Assembly (NCBI GenBank): GCA_965223505.1
Contig: CBDCWP010000030.1
Location: 244,860-308,859, forward strand
Origin: Planctomycetota bacterium
Lineage (GTDB): Bacteria > Planctomycetota > PLA2 > JAEUHO01
Reading direction: 5' to 3'
Length of the DNA: 64,000 nt
The position numbers were made by a program, and so were the translations under genes. The notes under the pieces were generated by a model that was not told where the DNA came from, did not search any database, and saw nothing but the letters and a program-made list of their open reading frames with translations. This document shows positions 36,486-40,629 of the stretch, one piece after another (position 1 is the first letter of the stretch; every line of letters starts with the position of its first letter).

Positions 36486-37235
36486 ATGAGTGCGCTCTTC
36501 CTTGCCAACGTCACCCTCATGGGCGTCGCGGCCAGCGTCGCCCTGGGCCTTGCGATCATCCTGTTTTGGCGACTGAACCGCCGCAACGAGGCGCTGCGGG
36601 CCGACATGGACCGCTTGAAGCGCGAGCACGGCGAGGCGACGGCCGACCTGCGCTCGCGCATCAGCGAGATCGCGCGGCAGGTGGACTCGGTCCACGAGGA
36701 GGTGCCTCCGCTCGTGTCGCGCTTCAAGGAGCACATTCCGGCGCTCGAGACCCGGGTCGAGGGCGCCGAGAAGCAGCTCTCGGCGGTCGAGCGCCAGCTC
36801 AAGGCGGCGGCCGAGGGCGTTCAGACCGCGCGCAAGGAGACGGACAAGGTGCAGTCCATCGTGACGAAGCGCGAAGCGTCGCTTTCAGAGCTGCGGGAGG
36901 CGATCACGCTCCTGCGCGGGACGGTGGACGAGCATCTCGCGCGCCGGGGCGCCGACCTCGACGCGGAGGAGGCGCAAGCAGGCGCCGCGACGGCGGTCAT
37001 CGCCAAACCCGCTGCGACGAAAAAGGCCAAGACGAAGGTCGTGAGCAAGCCGTCGCCCAAGGCCGCGAAGGCGCCGAAGCAGGCGTCCGCGAAAGGAGCG
37101 GCGGAGCCGAAGGCGAAGTCGGCGGCGGCGAGCGGCGAGGACGGCGCCGACATCTCGGGCGCGCGTTGGATCTTCGTCGTCATGGCGGCGTTGCTCGGCG
37201 CCGCGTTGCTGGCCCAGTGGATCCGGACCCAATAG
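36486..37235 (+). CDS. Hypothetical membrane protein (N- and C-terminal TM, coiled coil, Ala/Lys-rich linker)
   Basis: Hydrophobic termini, heptad repeats and a KPAATKKAK-rich segment. Confidence 0.7.
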   Translation: MSALFLANVTLMGVAASVALGLAIILFWRLNRRNEALRADMDRLKREHGEATADLRSRISEIARQVDSVHEEVPPLVSRFKEHIPALETRVEGAEKQLSAVERQLKAAAEGVQTARKETDKVQSIVTKREASLSELREAITLLRGTVDEHLARRGADLDAEEAQAGAATAVIAKPAATKKAKTKVVSKPSPKAAKAPKQASAKGAAEPKAKSAAASGEDGADISGARWIFVVMAALLGAALLAQWIRTQ

Positions 37236-37252
37236 CGCGGACGGCGAACACG

Positions 37253-37325
37253 GTAGGGGCAGCCCTTGTGGCTGCCCAACCCGGGACGCCAAGACACGCC
37301 GAATTGGGCGACCACAAGGGTCGCC
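37253..37325. repeat. REPIN interrupted by the IS110 element (remaining CCTAC at 38687-38691)
   Basis: GTAGGGGCAGCCCTTGTGGCTGCCCAA, a spacer, then TTGGGCGACCACAAGGGTCGCC followed by the IS and CCTAC. Confidence 0.9.
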
Positions 37326-37329
37326 GGTT

Positions 37330-37556
37330 TAGGGAATGGCAAGCCCTTTTCTGTCGGCCGTGCGTCCTTTCCGCGTCGCCAGGGTCGGATCCGTCCACTC
37401 GGGTTTTCGAGCTCGCCTATTCGGGCGGCGTCATGAGGGGGAGTCGGACGCGCCTCTCAATCGCCTACACGAGCTGATGCGCTCAGCGGCCCGCCGGAGT
37501 ACGCGCCCGTTGGTGTCCGATTCCTGGTTTCGCTTCCTCTCTCTCAGTGCGTTCGC
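37330..37556 (-). ncRNA. Putative bridge RNA/seekRNA in the IS 3' non-coding end
   Basis: Contains GTAGG...CGCC (matching target GTAGG-GG-CG) and AAACC...ATCC (matching donor junction AAACC-GG-AT), each pair flanking a hairpin. Transcription is not shown. Confidence 0.7.
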
Positions 37557-38603
37557 TCAGGCAGCCTGGCCTAGGCACCGACGCAGCGAGAACACCTCGC
37601 CACGCGAGAACATCACCCACACGCCCACCAGTAGCCGGCGTGCAAGCGCCATTCGAACCTTGTTGCGGTGCATGCGCCTGAGCATCGGCTGTGCCCACGC
37701 CTTCACCTCTGGGTCGAAGGCCAGCAACCGAACCGCCCATTGCCCCAGCACCCAACGCAACTCGGCGTTTCCGCGTTTGGTCATGCGGCCGTGGTGCGCT
37801 CGATCCGCCGAGGCCGAAACGCGTGGAACGACACCCCCATAGCTCGAGATCTGTCGAGCACCGCGGAAGCGGGTTGCGTCACCCAACTCAGCTTGAAGCG
37901 TCAGAGCCGTCTGGGCTCCCGCCTGTGGCAGATTCCGAACGATCCAGCCTGAGACTTCGTCCTGCTCGGCCAACTCGCGGATTCGAGCGGTGAGCTTCTC
38001 GATGCGCTCCTGCAGAGCCGCAACGACATCCACCAGCGACTGCAGCGCCAGATCCTGGTTCTCATCACCCAGTCGCTGCTCGCGAAGCCACTGGATCCCG
38101 CGCTTGGTGTACAGCTGCGTCACCGGCGCTCGCAGCAGGTACGCGTTGAGCATGCCGCGGATGTGCGCCAGCACGCTGGTTCGATGCTGAACGAGCTGAT
38201 GCCGAACCCGCAACACCTTGCGCTGGCCGAACTCGGCTTCGGTGGCGAAGTAGGTCAGTGCGTAGCGGTCCAGGTCGCCAAGGTACAGCCGGCGCGAGAT
38301 CTCCTGGGCGTCGCGTCGATCCGTCTTCTTGCCCTGCTTCTTCAGATCGAGCTTCGTGGCGTCCACCACAAGCATCTCCAAACCCGCTTCGCGGCAGGCC
38401 AGCACGAACCAGCGGTTGCAGCCCAACGCTTCCACCGCGAAGCGCCCGCCGCCGTAGGTGCCAAGAAACGCAACCAGCGCCGCGGCCGCCTTTCGATCCG
38501 GCAGGCGCCACCGCCGCTCCTCTTCGATCTCGCCCTTCGCATCACGGACGCAGATTTGGGCGACACTCTTGTGCAGGTCGATTCCGACGTGGTACGCAGT
38601 CAT
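37557..38603 (-). CDS. IS110-family DEDD recombinase/transposase
   Basis: 'VGIDLHK', 'AVEA', 'KTDRRDA' (DEDD) and Tnp domain 'RFRGARQISSYGGVVPRVSASA...TKRGN'. GAGGAAGGA precedes ATG 38603. Confidence 0.95.
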   Translation of the reverse strand: MTAYHVGIDLHKSVAQICVRDAKGEIEEERRWRLPDRKAAAALVAFLGTYGGGRFAVEALGCNRWFVLACREAGLEMLVVDATKLDLKKQGKKTDRRDAQEISRRLYLGDLDRYALTYFATEAEFGQRKVLRVRHQLVQHRTSVLAHIRGMLNAYLLRAPVTQLYTKRGIQWLREQRLGDENQDLALQSLVDVVAALQERIEKLTARIRELAEQDEVSGWIVRNLPQAGAQTALTLQAELGDATRFRGARQISSYGGVVPRVSASADRAHHGRMTKRGNAELRWVLGQWAVRLLAFDPEVKAWAQPMLRRMHRNKVRMALARRLLVGVWVMFSRGEVFSLRRCLGQAA

Positions 38604-38761
38604 GGGGTGGCAGTTCCTTCCTCGGCTGATGCCGTAAACACACTTGGCACGACCGAGGATCAGGGCTGCCACCCCCTATCCCATCCCCTACCTCCGCACC
38701 CGCGTTCACCGCCTCGCGGTCCGGGGTGTCGTGCACGATCACGTTCACGTGCCGATTCCCC

Positions 38762-38839
38762 GTAGGGGCAGCCCTTGTGGCTGCCCAACCCGTGACGCCA
38801 AGACACACGCCATTGGGCGACCACGAGGGTCGCCCCTAC
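38762..38839. repeat. Intact REPIN (inverted REP pair)
   Basis: GTAGGGGCAGCCCTTGTGGCTGCCCAA, a spacer, then TTGGGCGACCACGAGGGTCGCCCCTAC. The spacer is nearly identical to that at 37280-37303. Confidence 0.92.
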
Positions 38840-38882
38840 AAACCCGTAGCCGACAGATCACCACCCGTGGGAGATGACGGCG

Positions 38883-39206
38883 CTAGTCGCCCTTCTTGCG
38901 TACCAACGTCACGAGGAACGCTGCGTTCTCGGTTCCGGGATTGCTCGGACCTGCCGGCTTCGAACCGTCATAGAACGCGAGATCGCCCTTGGTGACCTCC
39001 GCGTCGCCTTCGCCGGGCGTGACGCGCACGGCCCCTTCGAGGCAGTACAGGATTGCCTCGCGCCGGCGATGGGTGAACGGCGTGAGCCCTTGTCCGGGCT
39101 TCAGACACACCAGCGTCACGATCGACCGGTCGGTCTCGATGATCTTCTTCGTGAACGGACCGTCGTCGCGGAACTCCATCCACTGCTCTACGGAACGCGT
39201 GTCCAT
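38883..39206 (-). CDS. Cupin domain protein
   Basis: 'LKPGQGLTPFTH..EAILYCLEG' and 'GDLAFY' cupin pattern. Confidence 0.8.
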   Translation of the reverse strand: MDTRSVEQWMEFRDDGPFTKKIIETDRSIVTLVCLKPGQGLTPFTHRRREAILYCLEGAVRVTPGEGDAEVTKGDLAFYDGSKPAGPSNPGTENAAFLVTLVRKKGD

Positions 39207-39231
39207 CGGCGCAGTGTACCGTCCTCGTCGC

Positions 39232-40629
39232 CTACCTACCCGGGTTCGTCATGTGGGTGACGTCGAGCACCTTCTCGAGCTTCGCGGGCGGCAGCAGCTT
39301 CTTCTCGGTCGCGATCTCGCGAATCGTACGGCCCGTCTGGTAGGCCTCCTTGGCGAGCGCGGCCGCCTGGTCGTACCCGATGTGCGGCGCCAACGCCGTT
39401 CCCAGCATCAGGCTCTCTTCGACGATCTTCTCGACGCGGTCGCGATCGACCTCGATGCCCTTGACGCAACGAAGGCGGAAGCCCTCAACGGCGCCGCTCA
39501 GCACCTGGATGCCGTCCAACAGCGTGTCGGCCATCAGCGGCAGCGTGACATTGAGCTCGAACACGCCGGAGGCGCCGGCGGCATTGACCGTCGTCACGTA
39601 GCCCTGCACCAGCTGACAGGCCATCAGCAGGCTCTCGCTGAGCACCGGGTTGACCTTGCCGGGCATGATCGACGAGCCGGGCTGGATCGCGGGCAGCTTC
39701 AGCTCGCCGAGGCCGCAGCGCGGACCCGAGCCGAGGTGGCGGATGTCGTTGGCGACCTTGGTGAGCGCCGCCGCGGCCGAGCCGAGCGCGCCCGCGAAGA
39801 ACACGCAGGCCTCTCGCCCGCCGAGCTGTTCGAAGAAGTTCCGCGCGGGACGCAGCTGCATCCCGGTGCGCTTCGACAGGTGCGCGATCGCCTTGGTGTG
39901 GAACTTCGGATGGCGGCCGATGCCCGTCCCGACGGCGGTGCCGCCGAGCGCGACCTCCAGCAGTCCGTCGTACGCGAGCGCGACGCGCTGGCAGGAGTGC
40001 GCGACCTGGGCTGCGTAGCCCTGGAACACCTGCCCCATGCGCACCGGCGTGGCGTCCTGCAGGTGCGTGCGCCCGACCTTCACGACGTCGTCGAACTCCT
40101 TCGACTTCTCGAGCAGCGCCACCGCCAGCGAGCTCATCGCGGGAATGAGCTGTTCCTTCGCCGCGCGCGCGACCGATAGGTGCAAGGCCGTCGGGATGAC
40201 GTCGTTGCTGGACTGCCCCAGGTTGACGTGGTCGTTCGGGTGGACCGGCGTCTTCGCGCCGGCCTTCGACCCCAGACCGATGTTGGCGATGTTGCTCAGC
40301 ACCTCGTTCATGTTCATGTTCGAGGACGTGCCGGAACCCGTCTGGAAGACGTCGATCGGGAACTCCTCGTCGCGCTTGCCCTTGACGACCTCGTCTGCCG
40401 CCTTGCGAATGGCGCTGGCCATGCGCGGCTTGAGCAACTTGAGCTCCTGATTGGCCTTCGACGCGGCCCACTTGATGTCCGCGAGCGCGTAGAGGAACCG
40501 CTTCGGCATCGTGCGGCCCGACACCTTGAAGTTGTCCACCGCGCGCTGCGTTTGCGCGCCCCACATGCGCTTCGCCGGGACCTTCACGGCCCCCATCGAG
40601 TCCTTCTCGGTGCGCATCCGCTGAGCCAT
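39232..40629 (-). CDS. fumC: Class II fumarate hydratase
   Basis: Motifs 'RTEKDSMG', 'QTGSGTSSNMN', 'GRTHLQDATP' and 'GSSIMPGKVNP'. Confidence 0.9.
   Translation of the reverse strand: MAQRMRTEKDSMGAVKVPAKRMWGAQTQRAVDNFKVSGRTMPKRFLYALADIKWAASKANQELKLLKPRMASAIRKAADEVVKGKRDEEFPIDVFQTGSGTSSNMNMNEVLSNIANIGLGSKAGAKTPVHPNDHVNLGQSSNDVIPTALHLSVARAAKEQLIPAMSSLAVALLEKSKEFDDVVKVGRTHLQDATPVRMGQVFQGYAAQVAHSCQRVALAYDGLLEVALGGTAVGTGIGRHPKFHTKAIAHLSKRTGMQLRPARNFFEQLGGREACVFFAGALGSAAAALTKVANDIRHLGSGPRCGLGELKLPAIQPGSSIMPGKVNPVLSESLLMACQLVQGYVTTVNAAGASGVFELNVTLPLMADTLLDGIQVLSGAVEGFRLRCVKGIEVDRDRVEKIVEESLMLGTALAPHIGYDQAAALAKEAYQTGRTIREIATEKKLLPPAKLEKVLDVTHMTNPGR

Follow-up and report, generated by a model that had tools for sequence, protein, structure and literature searches.

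The window, i.e. the whole stretch of 64,000 nucleotides that was analyzed, carries on its minus strand an insertion sequence (IS) with a gene for a DEDD transposase and a non-coding region downstream of this gene, for which an earlier note had proposed a guide RNA (Table 1). The ATG taken as the start codon is the position at which homologues begin to align. The predicted protein is recognized by the Pfam models PF01548 (N-terminal DEDD/RuvC-like domain, E 5.8e-11) and PF02371 (C-terminal domain, E 3.2e-19), and the NCBIfam model NF033542, 'IS110 family RNA-guided transposase', scores 181.5 bits at a cut-off of 140. D9, E58, D95, D98 and S265 are invariant in an alignment of seven sequences; their roles as DEDD and serine residues are assigned from the literature. 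We place the predicted protein in the IS110 family of RNA-guided DEDD transposases. Its C-terminal motif reads GVVPRVSASA, that is a proline, four residues and SA, in contrast to the IS1111 motif GL-P----S(t)G, for which SG, TG and occasionally TA are listed in PMC11187229. The nearest named proteins found are the IS1111 relatives ISHvo10 and ISPa25, with only 33% and 29% identity, respectively; metagenome proteins without an IS name reach 79%.

A search of the source genome with positions 37250-38850 returned four full copies of 99-100% identity: the one in the window (contig C30), one on contig C34 and two on contig C44. The copies are 99.8-100% identical, their outer left flanks differ, and the limits of the element are exactly equal. 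When the copies are aligned with their flanks, the left junction reads ...GTAGG GG|ATGGGATAGG... and the right junction ...CCCTAAACC GG|CGA(C/T)CC(T/A)TGTGGTCGCCC... in all four. The alignment thus defines a core of GG, a target of GTAGG-GG-CGAYCC and an element of 1361 bp, and the corresponding donor junction would be AAACC-GG-AT. Insertion is site-specific, with a short core common to the target and the IS junctions, and the flank logic and GG core that the earlier note had read from one copy hold for all four.

The target, GTAGG-GG-CGACCC, forms the beginning of a REP hairpin, and an intact copy of the REP unit hit by the insertion lies just upstream at 38762-38834 as a 73-nt direct repeat. 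This REP/BIME-like repeat of about 75 nt is abundant: it is found in the window at 37252-37325 and 38762-38834, and at more than 80 places in the genome. It comprises two inverted hairpin units, GTAGGGGCAGCCC...GGCTGCCC and GTAGGGGCGACCC...GGTCGCCC, and all four IS copies sit in the second unit type. Unoccupied sites in the genome number 92 for GTAGGGGCGACCC, 130 for GTAGGGGCAGCCC and four for GTAGGGGCGGCCC; five other AAACCGGCGA(C/T)CC sites in the genome lie in unrelated contexts. A rearranged remnant of the IS is present on contig C40 (226540-227300), where GTAGGGGCGAC directly abuts an internal segment of the transposase gene, after which come the 5' part of the gene in inverted orientation and a left junction of the usual form. 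The remnant could have arisen by IS-mediated inversion or deletion, or could be an assembly error.

Table 1. Positions in the window of the IS, its gene and ends, the target halves, and the predicted RNA with its helices and guides.
Feature	Position	Strand	Remarks
Whole IS	37324..38684	minus	1361 bp including one GG core; limits common to four full copies
DEDD transposase/recombinase gene	37557..38603	minus	348 aa from ATG at 38603; mechanical ORF from GTG at 38672
IS left end	starts at 38684	minus	starts ATGGGATAGG
IS right end		minus	...CCCTAAACC, then GG at 37325-37324
Left target half	38685..38691	minus	GTAGG (38691-38687) + core GG (38686-38685); same at 4/4 copies, differs further upstream
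Right target half	37252..37323	minus	CGACCCTTGTGGTCGCCC...; remainder of the REP-like palindromic unit hit by the insertion
Left subterminal inverted repeat	38662..38678	minus	TAGGGGGTGGCAGCCCT; -10-like GATAGG at 38680-38675
Right subterminal inverted repeat	37330..37347	minus	contains -35-like TTGCCA at 37342-37337
Conserved seek/bridge RNA core (predicted)	37375..37527	minus	about 150 nt; covariance model match
Helix P1, 3' strand	37385..37392	minus	pairs with 37512-37520; 7/8 pairs changed on both sides; AUCC (37390-37387) lies here
Helix P2, 5' strand	37497..37505	minus	pairs with 37449-37456; closes the target-binding loop; 96.6% paired, 7/8 pairs compensatory
Helix P2, 3' strand	37449..37456	minus	within GAGAGGCGCG, the segment that the earlier note took for an inner hairpin arm
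Hairpin P5 in the donor-binding loop	37408..37433	minus	96.1% paired, 4/7 pairs compensatory; CGCC (37430-37427) in the 5' strand
Right target guide (RTG), putative	37485..37492	minus	GGGCCGCU; complementary to the top strand of core + right flank GGCGACCC
Left target guide (LTG), putative	37464..37468	minus	GUAGG; equals the left flank; followed by conserved CGA
Left donor guide (LDG), putative	37402..37406	minus	AAACC; identical to the terminal 5 nt at the right end (37330-37326); followed by conserved CGA
Right donor guide (RDG), candidate	37434..37441	minus	CCCCCUCA; 5' side of the donor loop; weak

Taken singly, the sequence of the non-coding region says little about an RNA. The earlier note had picked out four minus-strand words as guides, i.e. 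GTAGG and CGCC for the target and AAACC and ATCC for the donor, all of which stand where it had placed them (Table 1). Its caution that such short matches could each be due to chance is borne out: in 5000 dinucleotide shuffles of the 233-nt region, GTAGG recurs in 6%, AAACC in 37%, ATCC in 61% and CGCC in 97%. The minimum free energy fold of the region has a z-score of +0.72 (153 of 200 shuffles are at least as good) and lacks the conserved fold described below. A scan of 36500-39500 against Rfam, with E-values up to 10, yielded seven weak matches, none of them in the non-coding region. Because single words are weak, the fold is no better than that of shuffled sequences and Rfam offers no match, the question could be settled only by comparison with relatives.

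Homologous loci were taken from a protein scan of genome contigs (two loci), from 400 other genomes in a sample of the same phylum (four loci) and from metagenomes (80 loci kept of 279 matches). At 44-64% protein identity, there were 42 loci with sufficient sequence downstream and with the conserved anchor GCUCGA. Two of them (L029 and L044) were dropped as duplicates of L028 and L013, so that the RNA alignment holds 40 homologues and the present element, i.e. 41 sequences. We left out L051-L054, L062-L064, L066 and L068-L070, where the contig ended or the anchor pattern failed, as well as L071-L103, whose identity is 26-31%. The guides played no part in locating the IS ends of the homologues, for which the subterminal repeat and a -35-like box were used. 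Right ends were placed by hand in three cases (this element, L024, L032) and by a generic pattern in six, including L058; the left flank of L037 was set by hand, and the right ends of L046 and L050 were excluded. Since the homologous loci are mutually related, counts of loci overstate their independence, and counts of distinct guide words are the safer measure.

The architecture of the element is that of the IS1111 group. Imperfect subterminal inverted repeats of about 17 nt, in the range of about 7-17 bp typical of the group, are present at both ends. The left one, TAGGGGGTGGCA-GCCCT, is set 6 nt in from its end and the right one, AGGGCTTGCCATTCCCTA, 4 nt; with AGGGCTTGCCATTCCCTA read as its reverse complement, the two coincide at about 15 of 18 positions. 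The non-coding sequence downstream of the gene (233 nt, 37324-37556) is longer than that upstream (81 nt, 38604-38684). Both subterminal repeats and a long downstream non-coding region are described as IS1111-group features (PMC11187229, PMC11208160). When the right end, the core and the left end are joined, the pattern TTGNNN, 17 bp, (T/G)ATAGN arises in 28 of 31 loci; in the present element, the boxes are TTGCCA and GATAGG with a 17-bp spacer. By their sequence, the joined boxes fit the junction promoter described for these families (PMC11187229; review PMC13604230). A scan of 37200-38800 for sigma-70-like promoters and terminators returned no promoter, and no terminator in the non-coding region. 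With no promoter or terminator of its own in this region, the RNA would presumably be cut from the transposase transcript. In the contigs of four DNA runs from one study, neither a circle junction nor a clean empty site was seen; the sole joint listed there has 16 foreign letters and a 21-nt side, and nothing was read from it. The depth over the IS is about 5-6 times that over the flanks in one run, which fits several copies.

Near the left end, the segment GGGGTGGCAG of the subterminal repeat (38666-38675) is perfectly complementary to CTGCCACCCC (38604-38613), the 10 nt before the transposase ATG. Complementarity of this kind, over at least 8 nt and with differing sequences, is found in 21 of 35 homologous loci. 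It resembles a hairpin of the 5' UTR, which could make the ribosome-binding site inaccessible in transcripts that read through.

Comparison with the relatives reveals a conserved RNA-like core downstream of the gene. From 38 homologues, leaving out both this element and L024, its closest relative, we built a covariance model that matches the window at 103 bits (E 4.4e-25), the next best match in the window being at 11.7 bits. Over the whole genome, the model finds exactly four matches, one per IS copy, and thus no orphan RNA genes outside of them. RNAalifold predicted a UGAGCC/GAGCUCG hairpin and a long-range helix between GGCGyACUy and rAGGCGCC, the latter located about 50 nt downstream. In the present element, the long-range helix (P2) joins GAGAGGCGCG to CGCGUACUC 45 nt upstream. 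The inner hairpins of the earlier note (UGAGAGG/CCCCUCA and agugga) have no place in this conserved fold; the pairing of GAGAGGCGCG in P2 replaces them. With P1 added by inspection, the fold has five helices. On the 41 RNAs, 87.1% of its cells are paired versus 73.9% in column shuffles (none of 500 reaches the observed value), pairing drops to 29-43% when the partners are slid against each other, and double changes occur in 20 of 29 pairs. P1 is only 65.9% paired because the position of its bulge shifts in the alignment; P4 is conserved without covariation. The secondary structure is thus conserved and backed by covariation, and G.U pairs at fixed columns (e.g. 39 of 41 sequences at columns 120:146) fit an RNA on this strand. 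Two loops are organized in a similar manner: the target loop, closed by P2, has the hairpin P3 between two variable stretches, followed by a conserved CGA, and the donor loop, closed by P4, contains a C-rich stretch, the hairpin P5, one A, a variable 5-mer and again a conserved CGA.

One could object that the non-coding region acts as DNA or as a plain 3' UTR, carrying protein sites, a promoter or a stability element, and that matches to the flanks are by-products of insertion preference. The right end does bear signals at the DNA level, namely the subterminal repeat and the -35 box. Compensatory changes, however, maintain all five helices on a single strand, and G.U pairs, which would read C.A on the opposite strand, are frequent; both points count against such a reading. 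Moreover, three segments covary with different DNA flanks over at least 11 guide classes, which a DNA-site model does not predict. We therefore regard this objection as very improbable.

The three covarying segments are the putative guides LDG, LTG and RTG. The clearest signal comes from the LDG, the 5-mer after GAGCUCGA: its final 4 nt are identical to those of the IS right end in all 38 loci examined, with 11 distinct 4-mers, and none of 1208 cross-class pairs match. For the LTG, identity to the left flank at successive positions outward from the core is 0.88, 0.97, 0.88, 0.84 and 0.62 (n = 32), and a match over all five positions occurs in 15 of 32 loci versus four of 976 cross-class pairs. 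Having the same sequence as the left flank, the LTG would pair with the bottom strand. The roles of left donor guide and left target guide that had been proposed for AAACC and GTAGG are hence corroborated, and the conservation of CGA after each left guide extends to the homologues the parallel that the earlier note had drawn between its two loops.

The right target guide lies elsewhere than had been supposed. In the zone 5' of P3, exact complementarity of at least 7 nt to the core and right flank is present in 18 of 34 loci versus 0.1% of 1042 mismatched pairs, and the mean longest run is 6.76 nt versus 3.05 nt in mismatched pairs. The closest locus, L024 (64% protein identity), is instructive: it has the same GUAGG and another right flank, GG+CATCGTG, and its 5' stretch CACGAUGCC is the exact reverse complement of this GG+CATCGTG. 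In the present element, the putative RTG GGGCCGCU forms six Watson-Crick pairs with GGCGACCC (37318-37325), one terminal G.U pair and one internal C.A mismatch, the latter at all four occupied sites (GGCGA(C/T)CC). The same RTG would pair perfectly with GGCGGCCC; the four GTAGGGGCGGCCC sites of the genome match it perfectly and are empty. Among the homologues, the register of the RTG moves by 1 nt between subgroups, and in a third to a half of the loci the match of LTG or RTG is only partial. The segment matching the top strand (RTG, 37492-37485) lies 5' of that matching the bottom strand (LTG, 37468-37464), which is the order that PMC11187229 reports for seekRNAs of IS1111.

Among the homologues, the core is GG at the left junction in 32 of 35 loci, and the cores of both junctions are equal in 21 of 31. 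In eight loci (L027, L030, L037, L039, L041, L042, L047 and L058), the right-junction dinucleotide is TG, GA, GC, GT or TA, mostly with GG retained at the left junction. In several of them, the 3' end of the right guide tracks the right-junction dinucleotide.

The exact layout proposed in the earlier note was different. In both loops, a left guide was to stand 5', followed by an inner hairpin and, on the 3' side, by a 4-nt right guide, i.e. CGCC for the target and AUCC for the donor. The four words do occur in that order, a combination seen in 0.02% of shuffles, though for a pattern chosen post hoc, and the parallel between ...cucgNGUAGGcga and ...cucgaAAACCcga is real, being conserved as '[left guide]-CGA'. 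The right guides, however, fail in the comparison. CGCC is part of the P5 stem and AUCC of the P1 stem, both of which show compensatory changes. The zone after UGA has no excess of complementarity to the target (a mean longest run of 3.24 versus 3.30 in mismatched pairs, and none of 34 loci with 7 nt), and the position of AUCC stays ..CCGA even though the left ends vary between AT, AC and AA. The frequency of both words in shuffles, given above, adds to this. Of the guide-target covariation that the earlier note had named as a check among homologues, the part concerning GTAGG and AAACC is found and that concerning CGCC and ATCC is not, and its rule that the right guide follows the inner hairpin does not hold for the target loop, where the RTG is located 5' of the LTG. 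The detailed layout was borrowed from IS621; it is wrong here, and we consider it hardly credible for this element.

What is more difficult to judge is whether the donor loop also contains a right guide. The C-rich strand CCCCCUCA 5' of P5 is a weak candidate: in the aligned register, 58% of its positions are complementary to the core and left end, as opposed to 20-41% in six slid registers. Covariation is seen at left-end position 5 only, where G goes with C in 4 of 4 loci and T with A in 17 of 26, and at left-end position 2 the candidate pairs almost never (0.11). Alternatively, reading by the RNA might be limited to the target and the donor's right end, and the protein would recognize the left end via the subterminal inverted repeat. 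The modest pairing of the candidate and its near absence at position 2 speak for such a division of labor, as do the long subterminal inverted repeats that exist in this element; furthermore, the seekRNA paper emphasizes target matches and end recognition (PMC11187229), and according to Durrant et al. the donor-binding nucleotides of IS1111 lie in multi-loops (PMC11208160). Against it stand the aligned register, which tops all six slid ones, the covariation at position 5 and the construction of the donor loop, which is symmetrical to that of the target loop. We judge a system without an RDG to be unlikely, if by no means far-fetched.

In sum, the locus is very probably an active-looking IS of the IS1111 group whose 3' non-coding region, to judge from the comparative data, yields a seekRNA or bridge RNA with two guide loops. 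The main idea of the earlier note, an IS1111-type element with a GG core and a downstream region encoding a conserved structured RNA with covarying segments, is thereby upheld. According to this model, the region would be transcribed, probably together with the transposase gene, and the transcript would fold into an RNA of about 150 nt. The target loop, closed by P2, would present the 8-nt RTG on its 5' side, the small hairpin P3 and the 5-nt LTG on its 3' side, with GUAGG pairing to the bottom strand left of the core. The donor loop, closed by P4, would contain P5 and the LDG AAACC, which would read the right end of the IS, and reading of the left end may fall to the C-rich strand 5' of P5. 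In complex with the DEDD recombinase, the RNA would then unite the circular IS junction AAACC-GG-ATGGG with the REP site GTAGG-GG-CGACCC, and strands would be exchanged at GG. The formation of the ribonucleoprotein, the circular intermediate and the chemistry are steps that we infer.

Several known systems share parts of this architecture. The IS1111 elements with seekRNAs (ISEc11, ISPa11 and ISKpn4; Siddiquee et al. 2024, PMC11187229) resemble the present one in their DEDD transposase of about 340 aa, their subterminal repeats and the long region downstream of tnp; in the seekRNA itself, where a segment complementary to the top strand precedes one complementary to the bottom strand; and in a promoter that arises at the circle junction. 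A REP-type site is likewise used by ISPa11; it starts GTAGGGCG, and the element inserts at GG*CG (Table 1 of PMC13604230). Differences concern the C-terminal motif and the low identity to named relatives, both mentioned above, and the kind of evidence, the RNA described here being predicted from sequence. The donor-reading segment (LDG) is backed here by covariation, and we found no such description in the sections of PMC11187229 drawn on here. According to Durrant et al. (PMC11208160), 93% of the IS1111 elements in ISfinder have a predicted bridge RNA in their right end. The predicted small RNA downstream of the transposase gene also recalls, by description, ISPpu9 of Pseudomonas putida, an IS110-family element in REP sequences with the small RNA Ssr9 (PMC12288879); ISPpu9 has extra orphan copies of ssr9, in contrast to the present element with none outside its four IS copies.

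The comparison with IS621 of the IS110 group (Durrant et al. 2024, PMC11208160) is twofold. Its bridge RNA likewise has two internal loops, of which the one for the target precedes the one for the donor; in each of them, the two strands around a common core dinucleotide are recognized, and one compact recombinase works with one RNA of about 150-250 nt. In IS621, however, the RNA lies upstream, in the left end (PMC11208160), whereas the RNA predicted here occupies the right end and would pair with the top strand through the 5' side of its target loop. Compared with IS621, the guides have a mirrored polarity: the long one (7-11 nt) is on the right and matches the top strand, and those on the left, 4-5 nt in length, end short of the core. 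We tentatively propose, at rather less than even odds, that in this environmental clade, with only about 30% identity to named IS1111 members, the mirror image applies to both loops, each with an RTG-type guide on the 5' side and a left guide of 4-5 nt on the 3' side that stops before the core. If true, the right guide of 7-11 nt would hold most of the target information, and a different order or geometry of strand recognition would be implied. The RTG of the present element also fits a REP of the CGGCCC type better than the occupied CGACCC sites, which would point either to tolerance of the mismatch or to an element that has only recently come from a host whose REP variant differs.

As far as its sequence allows us to predict, the element is a real system of an already known kind, a new member of the IS110/IS1111 family without an IS name. 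RNA-guided DEDD recombinases are under development as tools for genome insertion without double-strand breaks, and IS621 has been described far better than the IS1111 branch. For the annotation of this genome, the IS accounts for a four-copy repeat and for the preference for one of the two REP types. The known mechanism is unchanged by the finding. Its main use lies in the less-studied IS1111 branch, for which the element and its approximately 40 relatives form a natural reprogramming series, with 11 donor-guide words, more than 10 target-guide words and a fold backed by covariation, that separates guide nucleotides from scaffold nucleotides in a system of a 348-aa protein and a 150-nt RNA.
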